A stretch of DNA of 64,000 bases from an uncultured Bacilli bacterium (GCA_944332705.1 CALVKM010000002.1:10746-74745), one strand, 5' to 3'; positions 17,446 through 53,367 are shown, numbered from the stretch's first letter. Notes: a model not told the origin generated them from the sequence alone. A program made the numbers and translations.

Positions 17446-17772
17446 TTGTATAATGATAGGTTCTATTTAACACCACAAGAAATATTGGAAAAAGAATTTA
17501 AGGTGGATGCCAGGGGATATCGGCCTCAAGAGGTTGATAAATTTTTGGATATGGTTATTAGAGATTATACAGAATATGCAAATATTATTAAAAAATTAGA
17601 AAAAGACATTAAGAATCTAATGGAAGATAATTCTAAATTGAAACAAGAAATTAGAAGATTGCAAAGTGAAGTAGATTCTACTAGTAATGCCCCATCAAGG
17701 AGTATTAGTAATGTCGACCTTCTAAAAAGAATTAGTAATTTAGAAAAAATTGTTTATGGTAATAATGAATAA
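17446..17772 (+). CDS. gpsB: cell division regulator GpsB (DivIVA family)
   Basis: EILEKEFK..RGY..EVDKFLD and DLLKRISNLEK.V.G; recU-gpsB-rnpB synteny. Confidence 0.92.
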   Translation: MYNDRFYLTPQEILEKEFKVDARGYRPQEVDKFLDMVIRDYTEYANIIKKLEKDIKNLMEDNSKLKQEIRRLQSEVDSTSNAPSRSISNVDLLKRISNLEKIVYGNNE

Positions 17773-18118
17773 TTCTTGGGCAAATGCTGCATATATTGTA
17801 ATGTAGAGGAAAGTCCATGCTCACACAAGCTGTGATGTTTGTAGTGTTCGTGCCTAGGGAAAAAATAACCTAGGGTAGCTTTTGCTAACGGCTTCGAGGA
17901 AACCTGTCAAATGGTTTTAGTAGATATAAAAGTGCCATAGAGACGAGTTAGTTTGGAAACAGACTAAGTGGAACGCGGTAAACCCCACGAGTGAGAAACC
18001 CAAATTATGGTCGGGGAGTTCTATTTCGGGAATCAAACTGAAATAGGGCCTGCTTGCAGGAGATAAATATTTGCCACTTTCATAACCTGAAAGTACAGAA
18101 CATGGCTTATAAAGAATT
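17771..18118 (+). ncRNA. rnpB: RNase P RNA, class B
   Basis: GAGGAAAGTCCATGC, AGTGCCA.AG, GGTAAACCCC, ACAGAACATGGCTTA conserved regions; ends pair. Confidence 0.93.
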
Positions 18119-23793: not shown

Positions 23794-23870
23794 GGGGAAT
23801 TAGCTCAGCTGGCTAGAGCACCACGCTTGCACCGTGGGGGTCGCGGGTTCGAATCCCACATTCTCCACCA
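23794..23870 (+). tRNA. tRNA-Ala(TGC)
   Basis: G3:U70, anticodon arm CCACG-CTTGCAC-CGTGG, TTCGAAT loop, CCA. Confidence 0.96.
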
Positions 23871-45319: not shown

Positions 45320-45626
45320 TATTAGTGATTTGTCTAAATAATAAATTAATATTGTTTTCTAAATAGATTATCTTATAAGTATAATCTATTTTTTTTATGT
45401 AACTTTTAGTTTTAAGTAAATACCCATTTTTATAATAAGTTATTAATAGTTTATCATGAGTATAATAAGCATTAATTATTTTATTTTCTAATTCTTGCTT
45501 TTCATCTTCTGATAAAACTGGCATTTTTACTTTATTTTTTTCATTCATTAAATTATTTACTACAGTTCTTCCATTCATTAAAGAATTAAAAGGCATCCAT
45601 TTAATCATACCTCTATCTTTATTCAT
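45306..45626 (-). CDS. YolD-like protein
   Basis: DRGMIKW.PF, LSEDEK; overlaps stop of Y-polymerase. Confidence 0.85.
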   Translation of the reverse strand: MNKDRGMIKWMPFNSLMNGRTVVNNLMNEKNKVKMPVLSEDEKQELENKIINAYYTHDKLLITYYKNGYLLKTKSYIKKIDYTYKIIYLENNINLLFRQITNIILG

Positions 45627-46881
45627 GATGTCCTCCAACTTTAGTGTTTCTCTCAATTGCTGTTGAATCTGGAAGTAGGCTACTAGCTTTAATTAAACTA
45701 TTTTTTCCAAATTTATTTTTAATTTCATCAATAGCTTCATTTATTTTTTCTTCATTTTCTATAGTTTCAGTATTTTCAAAGAGATTTAATTGTACACCTT
45801 TTTTAGGTATTAAACCTCCACAAGATATACTTACTTTTCTAATAGGTAAAAATTCATAATATCTATCAAATATCATATTACAATATTTTACGATTTCTTT
45901 TGCTGCATCAGTTGGAGATTCTAATTTTAAGCTATGATAAAAACCACTACCAATATCTTTAGAATAACTAATACCTAACCCAATAACTGTAGTTTGTTTG
46001 TTATTGCTTCTTAGTCTTGCACATAATAAATCTACCATTTCACTAATAATTATTCTAATATTAGATTCATTATAATCTTTAAATAAAACTTGGGAATGGC
46101 TATAACTTTTATCTTTAGCTTGCACTTTAAAATCACTAATACGACTTAAATCTATTCCGTTTGCGTGATTCCAAAGCTCTAAGCCCATAACCCCAAATTT
46201 ATCTTTTAATTTATAAGGATCGTATTTGGCGAGATCTCCGACAGTATAGATATTTAAAATATTTAAATTTTTCTCCATTCTTGAACCAATTCCCCACATT
46301 TTAGATAAGGGAGTAATACTCCATAATTTAGTAGGTACATCATCATAAGTCCATTTGGCAATGTTATTTTTATGATGCTTTGCATCAATATCCATAGCAA
46401 CTTTGGCTAAGAGTAAATTTGGTCCAATGCCACAGGTAACAGTAAGGCCAGTTTTATCATAGACTTTTTGAATTATTTCCTCTGCTAATTCATAATCACT
46501 TTTTTTATATAATTTTAAATAATCTGTAACATCTAAGAAACACTCATCAATAGAGTATACATGTAAATCTTCTGGTGCTACATAATCTAAATAAATTCCT
46601 ACAACTTCTTTGCTTTTTTCAATATATAATTTCATTCGTGGTGGAACAATTGTATATTTAATATTCTTTGGAATATCATAAAGTCTACTTCTTGATGCCA
46701 CCCCTTGCTTCTTTAAATAGGGAGTAACAGCTAGAGTAATTGCTCCATTTCCTTGATTTTTATTAGCAACAACTAAAGGTACTTTAAAAGGATCTAAGCC
46801 TCGCTCAATACACTCACATGAGGCAAAAAAACTCTTTAAATCAATACACATAATATGTCTATTAAGATACAATTTTTCCAT
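45619..46881 (-). CDS. Y-family DNA polymerase (UmuC/UvrX-like)
   Basis: IDLKSFFAS.E, YSIDE, LLAK, WGIG, IGGH-like C-terminus. Confidence 0.92.
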   Translation of the reverse strand: MEKLYLNRHIMCIDLKSFFASCECIERGLDPFKVPLVVANKNQGNGAITLAVTPYLKKQGVASRSRLYDIPKNIKYTIVPPRMKLYIEKSKEVVGIYLDYVAPEDLHVYSIDECFLDVTDYLKLYKKSDYELAEEIIQKVYDKTGLTVTCGIGPNLLLAKVAMDIDAKHHKNNIAKWTYDDVPTKLWSITPLSKMWGIGSRMEKNLNILNIYTVGDLAKYDPYKLKDKFGVMGLELWNHANGIDLSRISDFKVQAKDKSYSHSQVLFKDYNESNIRIIISEMVDLLCARLRSNNKQTTVIGLGISYSKDIGSGFYHSLKLESPTDAAKEIVKYCNMIFDRYYEFLPIRKVSISCGGLIPKKGVQLNLFENTETIENEEKINEAIDEIKNKFGKNSLIKASSLLPDSTAIERNTKVGGHHE

Positions 46882-46891
46882 AATTTACCTC

Positions 46892-46905
46892 CGAACATTT
46901 GTTTC
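46892..46905. promoter_or_regulatory. LexA (Cheo) box
   Basis: CGAACATTTGTTTC resembles the Firmicutes GAAC-N4-GTTC box, adjacent to the umuC-like RBS. Confidence 0.7.
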
Positions 46906-46944
46906 TAAATAAATTATAAAACAAATACATTGATATAGCAATTC

Positions 46945-47142
46945 CTATTTTTGGAAATCTTTTACTAATTTTAATATATCTTTATCACTAATTTCTAATA
47001 CATTAATTAATTTGGCAAATGTTTCAATCTTAGGTATTTCTTCATCATTTTCTATTCTTTGAACAGTTCTAGTGTTTAGATCACTTCTTTCAGCCAATTC
47101 TTCTTGAGTTATTTTTAGTTTCATTCGATATTCTTTAAACAT
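46945..47142 (-). CDS. XRE HTH regulator
   Basis: GGAGG SD, TQEELAE..VQRIE; palindrome ATGACA-ATTA-TGTCAT at 47153-47168. Confidence 0.8.
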   Translation of the reverse strand: MFKEYRMKLKITQEELAERSDLNTRTVQRIENDEEIPKIETFAKLINVLEISDKDILKLVKDFQK

Positions 47143-47217
47143 AACTACCTCCATGACAATTATGTCATTATAAATAACATTTGTGTATGTCATAAAAGGC
47201 ATTTACACTATTTTTAC

Positions 47218-47430
47218 TTATTTTTTCTCAATAGTAATAATTAAACCTTCTTTTTTGGCTATTTTAAGTAATAGTTCAAAATCATAATTTCTTTGACCAT
47301 ATTCATAAAACTGAATAGCATTTTTACTTCTACCAATGCTTTTACCAAATTCTTCTTGCGTTTTGCCGCTCCATTCTCTAATAATTTTAATTACTTCGTT
47401 AGCCTTATAATCGTTAGCTACTATTTTCAA
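47218..47430 (-). CDS. XRE HTH regulator
   Basis: IRE..TQEEFG..IQFYEYG. Confidence 0.8.
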   Translation of the reverse strand: MKIVANDYKANEVIKIIREWSGKTQEEFGKSIGRSKNAIQFYEYGQRNYDFELLLKIAKKEGLIITIEKK

Positions 47431-47778: not shown

Positions 47779-49361
47779 TTTGAGTTTCGGTGAAAAAAAT
47801 AGTTGACAAGAAAAAATCAGAAAATGTTGATAACTTTTTCTGATTTTTGATTGAAAAATAAGGTAAAACACTCCAAAGTTTAGTATAATAAAGTTGTATA
47901 CTAAATTATCATAGTAAACAAAAATATGGAGGTGTCTTACATGAATAATTTTACTACAAATACCTATGAGTTGAAAAGAGAAATTTGTAATTTTTCTGAA
48001 AAAATTGCAAATGGGACTAATAAACCAGCCAAAAAGTTTGTTATGGAAACACAATATGGTCTTGCTAAAGGTGGAAGTTGTTTAGTCTCTAACATGGCTA
48101 GAGCACTAGATGAAGATATAAAATTAAATTATACGATAGATAGATTATGTGATAATTTTGCAAATTTGGACGATGAGTATGAAAAAATTATATGGAGAAA
48201 TTATATAAATGAAGTAAAAAAGCATATAAATACGAAGGAGCCAATAGCAATATTTGATGATAGTGATATCAATAAGGAATATAGCAAAAAGTTAGAAGAT
48301 TTAGATCGTGTTCGAGATGCATCAAGTCCAGATAAAAGAATAGTAAATGGTTATAATGTGTGTGAAGCAGTGTTACTTAGTAAAAATACTAATCAACCAA
48401 TTAGTGTTTATAGTAAAATATACTCATGTAAAAGCAAAAATTTCAAAAGTAAAAACACTTATACCCTAGATAGTATAAAAGCTGTTGAAAATATAGTGGG
48501 GAAAAAATTTATAGGGATATTTGACCGAGGATATGATGATAAAAAAATATTTGATTATATGGATAAAAAAGAGCATTCATTTATAGTAAGATTAGAGGAT
48601 ACAAGAACGTTGTTATTTAAAGGCAAAAAAAAGAGTGTAGAAGAAGTTGCTAAATCCAGAAAAGGTAAAATAGCAATGAAAGTATTATTTGATGATAATG
48701 AAGAATATGAATTAATGTTAAGCTATACAAAAGCCACATTACCATATAACAAAAAAGAATACACTTTAGTAATTGTGTATGGATTAAGTGAAGATAAGCC
48801 GATGAAATTACTTACTAACATCAAGATTGAAAGTAAAGAAGATGTTATAAGAATAGTAAGATTATATTTGTCTAGATGGAGAATAGAAGAACATTTTAGA
48901 GGAAAAAAACAGGAATATGATTTTGAAAACATGAGAGTAAGAACACTAAAAAGTATGAATAATTTAAATATGATGCTTACTATACATCTGGGACATATAG
49001 CGATATTAGCAGATAAAATAGATAGCAAATTATTAACAATTAAAATTATATATGCATCAAAATCATTAAGAAGTAAAACTATTGTGTGGCTAAGTCAAAT
49101 TGCTAGAGGGATGAAAGAAATATTAAAGTATGCCCATGAAGGAATAAAACGATGGCAAGATATAGAAGTTAGAGACTCAAGACAATTAAGTTTAAAGCTT
49201 TAAAAAACAACAAAATATCAAGAATTTTAAAAAAGCATAAAAAGTGCTTTATTTTGGCATGAAAAAAAGGAAGATTTATGATGATTATTAATTAAATAAT
49301 ATGTAAAATTTCAAATATTTAAAAAATTTATAAATTTTTTCGTAAAAAACCGAAACTCAAA
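47779..49361 (+). mobile_element. IS4-family insertion sequence
   Basis: 13-bp TIRs TTTGAGTTTCGGT/ACCGAAACTCAAA; 10-bp TSD TAAAAAATAT at 47769-47778 and 49362-49371. Confidence 0.9.
47941..49203 (+). CDS. DDE transposase (IS4-like)
   Basis: FDDSD, FDRGYD, Y..RW.IEE.FR..K (YREK) motifs. Confidence 0.9.
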   Translation: MNNFTTNTYELKREICNFSEKIANGTNKPAKKFVMETQYGLAKGGSCLVSNMARALDEDIKLNYTIDRLCDNFANLDDEYEKIIWRNYINEVKKHINTKEPIAIFDDSDINKEYSKKLEDLDRVRDASSPDKRIVNGYNVCEAVLLSKNTNQPISVYSKIYSCKSKNFKSKNTYTLDSIKAVENIVGKKFIGIFDRGYDDKKIFDYMDKKEHSFIVRLEDTRTLLFKGKKKSVEEVAKSRKGKIAMKVLFDDNEEYELMLSYTKATLPYNKKEYTLVIVYGLSEDKPMKLLTNIKIESKEDVIRIVRLYLSRWRIEEHFRGKKQEYDFENMRVRTLKSMNNLNMMLTIHLGHIAILADKIDSKLLTIKIIYASKSLRSKTIVWLSQIARGMKEILKYAHEGIKRWQDIEVRDSRQLSLKL

Positions 49362-49405
49362 TAAAAAATATTGTAATTTATTTAAAACTTTGGTATATTA
49401 TATAT

Positions 49406-49480
49406 GTAAGTGTTACCTGTATTCAGGAAACGCCTACCAAAATTGGTATGACGCTACTTTTAATTGTTAGCGTCTTTATT
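49406..49480 (+). ncRNA. putative antisense RNA (type I antitoxin), copy 1
   Basis: TTGTAA-17-TATATT promoter (49371-49399), two hairpins, GACGCTA..TAGCGTC-TTT terminator. Confidence 0.6.
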
Positions 49481-49546
49481 ATTGTCCTTACCAAGGATGA
49501 TAAGGACAATAACTATGACTAATTGAAAGAAATGTTCTTCGTTCAT
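49460..49546 (-). CDS. small hydrophobic peptide (28 aa), type I toxin-like, copy 1
   Basis: AAGGGGA SD; MNEEHFFQLVIVIVLIILGKDNNKDANN; homolog at 53040-53123. Confidence 0.7.
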   Translation of the reverse strand: MNEEHFFQLVIVIVLIILGKDNNKDANN

Positions 49547-49669
49547 CGCATCATCCCCTTTACTTTCATAATCCTTTTAGAGGAGGAGAAAGAAATGGAC
49601 TAGCAGACGCTATCCCAAATACAGATAACAGTTATCTATTATAACTGTTATTTTTTTATTTGCAAGCAC

Positions 49670-49706
49670 TTCGACATAGTTCGACAAAACATATCAAAAT
49701 TCGATA
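49670..49706. promoter_or_regulatory. triple Spo0A-box-like array
   Basis: TTCGACA at 49670 and 49680, TTCGATA at 49700. Confidence 0.6.
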
Positions 49707-49754
49707 AAGAAAATTATATTCTTCCTAAAATCCAATCAATAGAAATATTACTAA

Positions 49755-49886
49755 TTTTACATAAACTCTCATGGGGTATATGCTGATACTGATGTTTATA
49801 TTATAAGGCCTGTTTTCTATCTCAACTCCAATGTTACCTATGTCTCTGGTGATGGTTCAATTGATAATCCATTTAGAATTGAGTAG
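49755..49886 (+). pseudogene. 3' remnant of surface-protein paralog
   Basis: FYINSHG..IIRPVFYLNSNVTYVSGDGSIDNPFRIE* matches the C-termini ending at 8164 and 13954. Confidence 0.75.
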
Positions 49887-49945
49887 TGTATACTACTTTT
49901 TTTCTTTAATTAATGTTATAATTAAGTTAAGAAAGAGATGATTTT

Positions 49946-50578
49946 ATGTTAGATAATGTTGAAGTATTAATTCATAGTAGTATTAAAATTAATAAAGGGT
50001 TAGTTATTTATTTTGATCCATACAAAATAAATAAAGATTATAATGATGCTGATATAGTATTTATTACTCATAGTCATTATGATCATTATTCAGAAGATGA
50101 TTTAAAGAAAGTAATAAAGGATAATACTATAATTGTAATACCTAGTGATTTAGAAATAAAAGCACTAGAATTTGGTTTTGATAAAGAACATATAATAGTT
50201 GTAAAACCAAGTGGAGAATATAATGTTCTTGGAATTAATTTTAAAACAATTCCGGCATATAACACGAATAAGAATTTTCATCCTAAAGTTAATAACTGGG
50301 TTGGTTATATAATAAAAATAGACAATACAACTTATTATATTGCTGGTGATACTGATATTACTGAAGAAAATAGAAAAGTTTCATGTGATGTAGCATTTGT
50401 TCCTATCGGAGGAACATATACAATGAATACTTTTGAAGCAGCAGAGTTAGTTAATGAAATTAAACCTAAAGTAGTTGTACCAATTCATTATGGTTTAATT
50501 GTAGGTACTAAAGAAGATGCTATTAATTTTAAAAATTTAATTGATAAAGATATAGAATGTAATATATTAATGAAGTAA
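49946..50578 (+). CDS. MBL-fold metallo-hydrolase
   Basis: THSHYDH, AGDT, PIHY. Confidence 0.88.
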   Translation: MLDNVEVLIHSSIKINKGLVIYFDPYKINKDYNDADIVFITHSHYDHYSEDDLKKVIKDNTIIVIPSDLEIKALEFGFDKEHIIVVKPSGEYNVLGINFKTIPAYNTNKNFHPKVNNWVGYIIKIDNTTYYIAGDTDITEENRKVSCDVAFVPIGGTYTMNTFEAAELVNEIKPKVVVPIHYGLIVGTKEDAINFKNLIDKDIECNILMK

Positions 50579-52293: not shown

Positions 52294-52378
52294 ATGTTAA
52301 AAAACTTTGCGTAATTTCCAAACTATTTTGGTAGATATAAAAATGGCATTAATATATAATTGTTATCGAGAAGAAATT

Positions 52379-52948
52379 ATGGATTTAGGAAACAAAATAT
52401 TAAAATTAAGAAAGGAAAAAGGATACTCTCAAGAAGAACTAGCAGAAAAACTAGGAGTCACTAGACAAACAATATCCAATTGGGAACTTGGTAGTACACA
52501 ACCCAATCCCGAACAATTAAAAGGTTTATCAAAAATACTTAATGTAAGTATTGATGAACTTTTAGATAATGATATAAAAGCTGTGATTGAAGAAAAAGTA
52601 TCTAATACCGAAAAACTAGCAGGTATTATTATTAAAATACTTAAAGTCTTTGGAATACTTATTATTATATATATTTTGTTGTTGGTTATAGGTATTATTA
52701 CTTTTACTGTTTTTCGCAAAGAATCAAGTGAATCAGTTTGTAATAAAGCTACAAGTGCAACTCTAAATTGTTCAATTGAAGATAATAACTATACTGTAAC
52801 TATTGGTGATGATAACTATTTTGATTGTCCAGAATGCAATGAGGATATGCAAATTTATTTGAAAGATATTACTGATTGGGCCAATATAAATCATAGTGTA
52901 GAAAACATTAAAACCTATTTTAGGGAAAATGGTGGAAATTGTGAGTGA
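52379..52948 (+). CDS. XRE HTH protein with TM
   Basis: SQEELAEKLGVTRQTISNWE, then TM. Confidence 0.85.
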   Translation: MDLGNKILKLRKEKGYSQEELAEKLGVTRQTISNWELGSTQPNPEQLKGLSKILNVSIDELLDNDIKAVIEEKVSNTEKLAGIIIKILKVFGILIIIYILLLVIGIITFTVFRKESSESVCNKATSATLNCSIEDNNYTVTIGDDNYFDCPECNEDMQIYLKDITDWANINHSVENIKTYFRENGGNCE

Positions 52949-52988
52949 TTAACTTGTAATTTATTTTGAAATTTGGTATATTATAAAT

Positions 52989-53060
52989 GTAAGTGTTACC
53001 CATATTGGGTAACGCCTGAATTGTGTCAGACGCTACATTTTACTTGTCGGCGTCTTTTTT
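52989..53060 (+). ncRNA. putative antisense RNA (type I antitoxin), copy 2
   Basis: TTGTAA-17-TATATT promoter (52954-52982), covarying hairpins, AGACGC..GCGTCT-TTTTT terminator. Confidence 0.6.
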
Positions 53061-53123
53061 GTTGTTTGTTCCATAGATGACCAGTATCAAAATAACTACT
53101 AGTAGATATAAATCTTCATTCAA
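53040..53123 (-). CDS. small hydrophobic peptide (27 aa), type I toxin-like, copy 2
   Basis: AAGGGAGG SD, TTG start; MNEDLYLLVVILILVIYGTNNKKDADK. Confidence 0.7.
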   Translation of the reverse strand: MNEDLYLLVVILILVIYGTNNKKDADK

Positions 53124-53246
53124 CTGTACATCCCTCCCTTTTATCCTTGTTTAGAAGGAGGAGTTAAAAAACGGATAACAGCGACGCCTCACCAATAATG
53201 GGTAACGGTTATCTATTATAGTTGTTATTTTTTTATTTGCAAGCAC

Positions 53247-53283
53247 TTCGACACACATCGACAAAACAAGCCAAAATTCGACA
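53247..53283. promoter_or_regulatory. triple Spo0A-box-like array
   Basis: TTCGACA 53247, ATCGACA 53257, TTCGACA 53277. Confidence 0.6.
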
Positions 53284-53367
53284 TTCTTTGGTAGAATAAT
53301 AGTTGTGTTTACTTTAAATAATTGTTATAATTTATATGAAAAAAATTAATGAAAGAACTTGGGATAT

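Follow-up and report, generated by a model that had tools for sequence, protein, structure and literature searches.

The DNA considered here is a stretch of intergenic sequence, positions 49371 to 49706, in a 64,000-nucleotide window from the genome of an uncultured Bacilli bacterium (GCA_944332705.1 CALVKM010000002.1:10746-74745; "the window" refers to all of it). The original prediction, made from this one sequence, saw here an unannotated type I toxin-antitoxin-like module: a minus-strand promoter, a long 5′ untranslated region (UTR) and a 28-residue peptide, facing a convergent plus-strand promoter for a short antisense RNA. All these parts are present (Table 1). Their conservation in related copies, together with covariation in the hairpins and helices of both RNAs, supports that reading, and we think it probable that this locus, which we call module 1, belongs to an undescribed family of type I toxin-antitoxin-like modules, chromosomal and present in multiple copies, that is carried by uncultured gut Bacilli with small genomes (1-1.5 Mb, 27% G+C). 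Comparison of the copies establishes the open reading frame (ORF), the two RNA structures, the two promoters and the copy number.

Organization of the module and its reading frame

A profile search of the collected DNA gives 121 matches, of which 69 are distinct full-length modules. The sense promoter (TTGNNN + TANAAT) is found at the same place in 67 of the 69 modules and the extended -10 antisense promoter (TTGNNN + TGNTATAYT) in 64 of 68; these counts permit variant -35 hexamers, and with strict patterns they become 46/69 and 45/68. In the consensus of the flanks, conservation stops just outside both -35 boxes, with the exception of the heptamer boxes upstream of the sense promoter.

Table 1. 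Parts of module 1 and the second module of the family, in window coordinates
Feature	Position	Strand	Basis or remark
Promoter of the peptide mRNA, TTGCAA-16-TATAAT	49638..49665	-	hexamer match 10/12; predicted start near 49631
5′ arm of the closing (5′-3′) helix of the mRNA	49600..49630	-	fold and covariation
Remaining 5′ UTR	49547..49599	-	CU-rich tract, Shine-Dalgarno-like motif, short upstream frames
CU-rich tract CTCCTCCTC	49588-49580	-	read directly
Shine-Dalgarno-like AAGGGGA	49560-49554	-	read directly
28-codon ORF, hydrophobic peptide	49460..49546	-	acidic N-terminus, uncharged core, Lys-rich C-terminus; ends after Lys-Asp-Ala
Antisense RNA terminator	49450..49483	+	stem 49450-49456 with 49468-49474, U-tract 49475-49483; overlaps last ORF codons
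3′ arm of the closing helix, in the mRNA 3′ UTR	49411..49440	-	wholly within the stretch covered by the antisense RNA
Antisense RNA promoter, TTGTAA-17-TATATT, TG ahead of the -10 (extended -10)	49371..49399	+	promoter scan
Predicted antisense RNA, ~78 nt, candidate antitoxin	49406..49483	+	two hairpins (5′ and middle) and the terminator
Three heptamer boxes upstream of the sense -35	49670..49706	-	TGTCGAA at 49676-49670 and 49686-49680, TATCGAA at 49706-49700
Second module of the same family in the window	52954..53300	-	27-codon ORF with TTG start; antisense fold z = -4.3

The original prediction had made conservation of the ORF in homologous loci one of the points on which it would stand or fall. 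We observe a homologous ORF of 23-39 codons, intact, at the same position and behind a Shine-Dalgarno motif, in 65 of the 69 modules. We compared ORFs of equal length that differ by no more than 30% (114 pairs, 100 of them usable; the pairs are not independent), and found the nonsynonymous rate (dN) below the synonymous rate (dS) in 98 of the 100, with a median dN/dS of 0.25. Differences fall on codon positions 1, 2 and 3 in the numbers 361, 211 and 574, and the remaining two reading frames are almost never open. By these measures, the peptide ORF is a gene under purifying selection.

We also considered a peptide encoded on the antisense strand. Frames of at least 20 residues start from the antisense RNA region in 49 of the 69 modules, but only one has a Shine-Dalgarno-like motif and their places and sequences differ, so we rejected it. 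On the peptide strand, 26 of the 65 ORF-bearing modules, mostly of one peptide class, have a minimal upstream frame of 2-3 codons (AUG, one or two codons, UGA) the stop of which overlaps the peptide start (AUGA). Module 1 has a longer upstream frame of 8 codons (49544-49570, minus strand) with its own purine-rich motif. Such a frame may serve as a start-stop or coupling element, faintly like mok in hok loci.

RNA structure on the two strands

The predicted mRNA (49631-49408) folds with -87.6 kcal/mol (z = -10.2), and none of 200 shuffled sequences folds as well. Its minimum-energy fold is closed from end to end by a helix of 30 pairs, in which 49630-49600 is joined to 49440-49411. That the mRNA 5′ end is complementary to the mRNA's own 3′ region had been noted in the original prediction, and the 12-mer 49629-49618 indeed forms 12 pairs, one of them G·U, with 49423-49412; the helix is longer than that, and it covaries. 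The same closing helix, together with a hairpin at the end of the ORF, is what RNAalifold reports both for the first consensus alignment (21 of the 25 modules then known, after dropping three truncated ones and one near-duplicate, L043, which has the same peptide as L004) and for all 69 sense transcripts. Folded one at a time, 64 of 65 modules have the closing helix in their minimum-energy structure, and so do all six distant modules examined from the g103 and g182 genomes.

Is the helix conserved as a structure? In the 69 sequences, 95.5% of the alignment cells pair, vs. 34-51% when the 3′ partners are slid by 1-3 columns. Changes have occurred on both sides in 16 of the 27 pairs. Most telling of all, the wobble pairs are strand specific: on the peptide strand, the closing helix has 157 G·U pairs vs. 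9 A·C. The terminator hairpin, when read on that same strand, has the opposite bias, with 11 A·C and 1 G·U.

The opposite strand has its own structures. The predicted antisense RNA (49406-49484, z = -5.0) folds into three hairpins, one at the 5′ end, one in the middle and one for the terminator, with UUUAUUAUU after the last, much as originally proposed for an RNA of about 75 nt with a terminator over the peptide 3′ end. In the antisense orientation, the 5′ hairpin has 105 G·U and 2 A·C, and the terminator, the stem of which covaries, 45 G·U and 1 A·C; combined, the 150 to 3 ratio mirrors the bias of the sense helix. The nine nucleotides after the terminator stem hold 5-8 Ts in the antisense direction in 69/69 modules, and 0-3 Ts in the sense direction in 60/69. 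A covariance model was built from 59 of the 69 antisense RNAs, leaving out eight of the class without a polar tail and two near-duplicates. The last 7 codons of the ORF, its stop codon and, over its entire length, the 3′ arm of the helix that locks the mRNA all have their full complement in the antisense RNA. Thus, as far as covariation and wobble can tell, the same DNA is shaped for pairing with the mRNA 5′ end in one direction and for local hairpins in the other, and there are two RNAs under selection, one per strand: a locked peptide mRNA and an antisense RNA of ~78 nt.

An inverted repeat acting at the DNA level would lack this asymmetry, and therefore the opposite wobble bias of the two strands argues against one. 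This matters for an explanation in which the unit is a selfish repeat, either a miniature inverted-repeat element or an intergenic repeat, with incidental ORF and promoters. Such an explanation has in its favor the many copies, the inverted repeats at both ends of a ~230-bp unit, the transposase gene adjoining module 1, and the variable presence of the module at a fixed site. But the ORF is under purifying selection, each set of arms accepts G·U and not A·C on one strand only, the conserved unit reaches past the inverted repeats into both promoters, and within one genome the arm sequences vary from copy to copy, although in every copy the two arms still match each other. Searches of phage and plasmid collections (tblastn with the peptide, blastn with the module) found nothing similar. 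We consider the selfish repeat highly improbable.

One further pairing had been proposed. GACGCTA is directly repeated on the plus strand (49450 and 49606), as originally observed, which would let the antisense RNA also pair with the 5′ UTR. The element in question is 5-7 nt long, lies ~60 nt upstream of the start codon, and would be the counterpart of the DRa/DRb repeats, by which complementarity in par loci extends over the start region of the toxin mRNA. It pairs with the GACGC element of the antisense RNA in 85.5% of cells, which is some support, but the same 5′ UTR bases pair within the mRNA, in the closing helix, in 94.1%. The two pairings compete, and we have set this one aside as the weaker.

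Peptides, copies and surroundings

The modules encode 53 distinct peptides of 23-39 residues (median 27), with a neutral or acidic N-terminus, an uncharged core of mostly 14-16 residues, and, in 48 of the 53, a net positive charge C-terminal of the core. They form at least six classes with little mutual identity, one of which has nothing beyond the core. Where a class does have a polar tail, the codons for Lys-Lys-Asp-Ala double as the U-tract and stem of the antisense terminator, and this is why the C-terminal Lys-Lys-Asp-Ala is the most conserved part of the peptide.

The original prediction did not recognise the peptide family, and neither do the databases. Pfam, which holds models for Fst/Ldr, Hok, TxpA/BsrG, Ibs, TisB and other curated toxin families, reports no family at E up to 10 for five peptides queried. 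NCBIfam gives only MgtU, at an E-value of 0.028 and below its cut-off. A profile of 17 peptides finds no PDB chain at E up to 10, and the ESM Atlas has no usable match for a 32-residue variant. At the RNA level, Rfam gives no relevant match at the gathering score for the window, nor at E up to 10 for 49200-49800.

The genome of the window (G000) is a 1.43-Mb metagenome-assembled genome with 27% G+C, completeness 84% and contamination 5%; an RNase P RNA of class B (window 17772-18114, plus strand) places the organism in Bacillota, and the window also has two tRNA genes (2770-2852 and 23794-23867). The 336-nt stretch has 12 DNA matches in this genome, including the second module of the window, and the peptide profile finds 8 related ORF-bearing copies. 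Of ten regions of the genome that we examined, seven have the homologous ORF intact, and in the others it is extended, frameshifted or degenerate. DNA matches occur in 20 of 41 genomes of relatives (G000 included), with 16 of 24 in the same genus and up to 20 matches per genome. A 27-nt pattern for the antisense promoter retrieves 54 stretches from 14 public assemblies, titled as uncultured Bacilli (nine), Tenericutes (one), Candidatus Onthocola (two), uncultured bacterium (one) and Muribaculaceae (one). The last, a complete module (L074) on a 6.3-kb contig binned with a Bacteroidota genome, is probably a mis-binned contig rather than a transfer.

How far does the family reach? Searching 151 genomes, one per genus of the family, with the covariance model gives 8 modules in G000, 10 in the g103 genome and 3 in the g182 genome. 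In the g103 and g182 modules the order is unchanged: box and promoter, then the 5′ arm, the Shine-Dalgarno motif, a very hydrophobic ORF of 22-28 codons, the hairpin, the 3′ arm and the antisense -10. The peptides and the arm sequences are different ones: one RNA scaffold, with unrelated-looking peptides. The peptide profile, run against 201 genomes of the order, has strong matches only in G000 and G001, both within the genus, and weak ones in G151. Single matches elsewhere in the order have E-values of 2.8e-4 or worse, and we treat them as chance.

Both modules of the window sit in intergenic gaps among ordinary chromosomal genes, and we see no prophage context. The gene order is Y-family polymerase, two helix-turn-helix (HTH) genes, DDE transposase, module 1, MBL-fold hydrolase, a 96-residue ORF, MgsA/RarA, a membrane-anchored XRE protein, module 2, a YjbR-domain gene and an exonuclease. 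The transposase gene that adjoins module 1 (47926-49203, plus strand) and, beyond it at 45619-47430 (minus strand), the two small HTH genes and the ImpB/UmuC-type polymerase gene may be a small mobile or SOS-like patch. Next to module 2, the XRE-type HTH protein (52307-52948, plus strand) has a C-terminal membrane segment and a Cys-rich tail, and its gene ends 6 bp before the module 2 antisense promoter.

The gap between XRE and YjbR gives an example of how the modules come and go. In one relative (G239) it contains the same module as module 2, at 97% identity; in another (G010) it lacks a module and has two different small ORFs; in G024 the two genes are separated by a stretch of another length, and in G020 the module after the XRE gene belongs to a different peptide class. 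Among 36 pattern-defined modules, four have internal deletions that remove the ORF or its start and keep both arms and the antisense part, one of them being 95% identical to module 1. Copies with a stop or a frameshift exist as well. The ORF-deleted and frameshifted copies in which the antisense part persists are the only hints, and indirect ones, at a toxic peptide neutralised by the RNA. In one G000 copy (C12a) a run of Ts is longer by one T, which puts the sequence after the ATG out of frame; a GTG four bases further along brings the peptide back into frame. Arrays of two or three modules in tandem are common, with differing peptide classes and no terminator between them; instances are G000:C12:9300-10060 (minus strand), L037:1044-1988, L063, L045, L036, L039, L069 and L099. 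The ldr, ibs and aapA loci also come in tandem arrays.

Given that toxicity is inferred only, the RNAs and the peptide could be real and the peptide a harmless small membrane protein, for instance a modulator of a transporter or sensor, tuned by its cis-antisense RNA. Regulatory small membrane proteins exist, the sole weak family match is one (the sub-cut-off MgtU hit above), and the hydrophobic core is short. What we know of the copies speaks otherwise: eight or more diverged paralogues in a 1.4-Mb genome; tandem arrays; peptide classes that swap at one chromosomal site; copies that lose the ORF and retain the antisense part; and no conserved partner gene beside the modules of the window. In addition, so elaborate a lock on the mRNA is characteristic of type I toxins, and for a housekeeping micro-protein it would be out of the ordinary. 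The harmless peptide is in our judgment unlikely, although it deserves a real share of the doubt.

The toxin-antitoxin reading itself also has observations that weigh against it. Module 1 by itself proves little: promoter-like sites number 10 vs. 7.5 +/- 2.7 in shuffles of its AT-rich kilobase, without enrichment, and a terminator scan of 49000-50000 reports none, having missed the antisense terminator because its 11-nt loop exceeds the 8-nt limit of the scan. Therefore the case against chance rests on conservation and covariation in related copies, not on module 1 alone. Those copies were gathered by the family's own profile, such that the conservation counts are partly by construction. None of 500 shuffles matches the covariation score of the closing helix, but all modules come from related metagenome-assembled genomes, their rows are non-independent, and relatedness alone can beat a shuffle control; more weight belongs to the control with slid partners and to the wobble bias, which is strand specific.

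Other such points concern the RNAs and the peptide. No sense-strand hairpin is followed by a U-tract, and the scan gives no terminator for the mRNA 3′ end. The burial of the ribosome-binding site is modest, with a mean paired probability for Shine-Dalgarno bases of 0.77 vs. 0.63 for all bases in 65 modules. The anti-Shine-Dalgarno CTCCTC tract of the original prediction is present, but in the minimum-energy fold of module 1 the Shine-Dalgarno bases pair with other upstream bases and not with the CU-rich tract. For a membrane span, 14-16 uncharged residues make a short core. And among 11 sequencing runs none recorded as RNA contains the stretch, the best share among possible RNA libraries being 0.12; contigs from four of the runs contain only short pieces with 90-95% likeness, from which neither starts, ends nor strand can be read and which have no bearing on expression either way, and one contig (run X6) joins two successive modules end to start, as fits tandem arrays.

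Could promoter-like hexamers of AT-rich DNA, a short ORF and some hairpins have come together here by chance? Promoter-like sites are just as frequent in shuffles, as one would then expect, but chance is contradicted by conservation, covariation and selection across 69 modules and three genera, and we give it next to no weight.

The heptamer boxes connect the modules to other parts of the genome. The consensus of 65 upstream flanks retains the two proximal boxes, 10 bp apart. The pair TGTCGAA-N3-TGTCGAA, with its 10-bp phase, occurs at 33 places in the 1.43 Mb of G000 at no more than one mismatch, when far fewer than one exact pair is expected. Box pairs often abut a -35, and they are present at all the putative toxin promoters. 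Example sites are G000:C6:3088, C12:23306, C16:478, C2:27961 (window 17216) and C2:86344, and the genes behind the other pairs have no common theme (dnaA, a cold-shock gene, DivIVA-like, MiaB-like and SpoIIIAH-like genes, a dockerin protein). From their pattern, the boxes are a candidate regulator site, probably that of a global DNA-binding protein. The layout recalls CtsR operators, but there is no CtsR domain in G000 (84% complete), and we have rejected CtsR as the binder. Other short units also have a box and a TTGCAA promoter: G000:C1:109800-110250 (plus strand), C1:51872 (minus strand) and C8:42940-43254 (minus strand). Their 5′ end is complementary to a stretch ~120 nt downstream, and any ORF in them is short and not hydrophobic; they may be RNA modules related to the present ones that lack the membrane peptide.

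Relation to known systems and a proposed mechanism

The comparison with described systems supports a type I toxin-antitoxin architecture, with a layout nearest to that of bsrG/SR4 or txpA/RatA and the addition of a lock like those of hok and aapA1. Like bsrG/SR4 and txpA/RatA of Bacillus subtilis, the module combines the gene of a small hydrophobic peptide with a cis-antisense RNA that runs toward it and covers the 3′ end of its mRNA, where a long perfect duplex is expected; PMC8309996 describes bsrG/SR4 as working by 3′ overlap and RNase III. We find no sequence relation to either in Pfam, NCBIfam or Rfam, the module is chromosomal and multi-copy, and its peptides are shorter (median 27 residues vs. 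38 for BsrG; PMC8309996). In the module, moreover, the target of the antisense RNA is also one arm of the 5′-3′ lock. We know of no such arrangement for bsrG or txpA.

The lock is what the module shares with hok/sok (E. coli R1) and aapA1/IsoA1 (Helicobacter pylori), where pairing between the 5′ and 3′ ends closes the full-length toxin mRNA and keeps it inactive, a likeness in how it works and not in homology. The hok and aapA1 mRNAs refold after processing (PMC8309996), and long-distance 5′-3′ interactions are among the descriptors in T1TAdb (PMC8594479). The antitoxins of these two systems bind the 5′ part of the mRNA, whereas the RNA of the module covers the 3′ arm; their hosts are Proteobacteria and Campylobacterota, not Bacillota, and no peptide similarity was found in Pfam or PDB. 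The module also has no antitoxin on a 5′ leader and no mok-like overlapping leader ORF, beyond the 2-3-codon upstream frame in 26/65 modules.

Could it be a diverged Fst/Ldr superfamily member, a par-type locus, and not a new family? The par locus (RNA I/RNA II, Fst) of Enterococcus faecalis pAD1 is similar in its convergent promoters, complementary hairpins near the 3′ ends, buried mRNA 5′ end, hydrophobic core with charged tail, and a second, short stretch of the 5′ UTR that could pair with the antisense RNA. The par/Fst criteria stated in PMC7472228 include a PxxxG in the hydrophobic domain, a bidirectional terminator shared by the two RNAs, convergent promoters and a buried mRNA 5′ end. 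PxxxG is found in 0 of the 53 peptides, and any Pro in only 5. The terminator is one-directional and not bidirectional, we see no DRa/DRb over the start codon, the partner of the 5′ end is the 3′ UTR rather than a local upstream segment, and the Pfam, NCBIfam and PDB sequence searches above gave no match other than the sub-threshold MgtU. We regard membership in Fst/Ldr as very unlikely. Thus, of the Firmicutes type I architecture invoked by the original prediction, the TxpA/RatA-like layout stands and the Fst/par build does not.

The ibs/sib and ldr/rdl modules of E. coli share with the type I module proposed here very short, very hydrophobic peptides in tandem chromosomal modules with their own cis-antisense RNAs, and the class that ends directly after the core recalls the Ibs peptides in composition. 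The Sib and Rdl RNAs differ in overlapping the 5′ part of the ORF or the whole of it, and Pfam finds no sequence relation.

How might the module work? Transcription, the order of events, the action of RNase III and toxicity are all things that we infer. The minus strand would give an mRNA of at least ~225 nt encoding the 28-residue membrane-type peptide. Its first ~30 bases would pair with the 3′ UTR into a ring-like closed fold, with both ends buried and the ribosome-binding site mostly paired, so that the closed mRNA would be stable yet poorly translated. From the extended -10 promoter on the plus strand, the ~78-nt antisense RNA would run to its own terminator inside the last codons of the ORF. 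It may first contact the mRNA at the spacer between the hairpin and the 3′ arm, a spacer that is unpaired in both the sense and the antisense folds, or else at hairpin loops, and would then displace the mRNA 5′ end, which it resembles, to form a ~78-bp duplex. RNase III, which is encoded in G000, would cut this duplex and no peptide would be made. Were the antisense RNA lost, or the 3′ arm of the mRNA trimmed, the mRNA would open, and the peptide would be made, insert in the membrane and stop growth.

A more speculative proposal, one that we hold only tentatively and think more apt to fail than to survive, goes further in three directions. The antitoxin would mimic the mRNA 5′ end and, its target being the 3′ arm of the lock, binding would be the same as opening, a three-strand exchange not described as a design for type I systems. 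The scaffold of two promoters, two arms and a terminator would serve as a holder for cassettes, with recombination between copies exchanging one unrelated hydrophobic peptide for another. And the phased TGTCGAA boxes would wire the toxin promoters into a genome-wide regulon.

What appears to be new, judging from the Pfam, NCBIfam, Rfam and PDB searches that set it apart, is a peptide family, or families, on a new RNA scaffold that combines known principles. In the literature we found no type I loci described in RF39-like, Tenericutes-like or other uncultured gut Bacilli; a listing in T1TAdb is possible, its entries and the supplements of papers lying outside that search. Type I systems are thought to be under-counted, with searches starting from known sequences (PMC12390103), and the present family was found without homology to known toxins.

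The modules are a clear comparative case of both strands of one DNA stretch being under separate selection for RNA structure, and covariation together with opposite wobble bias provides testable secondary structures for both RNAs without RNA-seq. They would join two principles known from different lineages, the 3′-overlapping antitoxins of Bacillota and the locking of the mRNA by its 5′ and 3′ ends in hok and aapA1. With such varied peptides on a single scaffold, the family offers a panel for asking what makes a 25-residue peptide toxic. And with at least 8 copies in 1.4 Mb, it would be a notable share of the intergenic RNA genes in these genome-reduced gut Bacilli.

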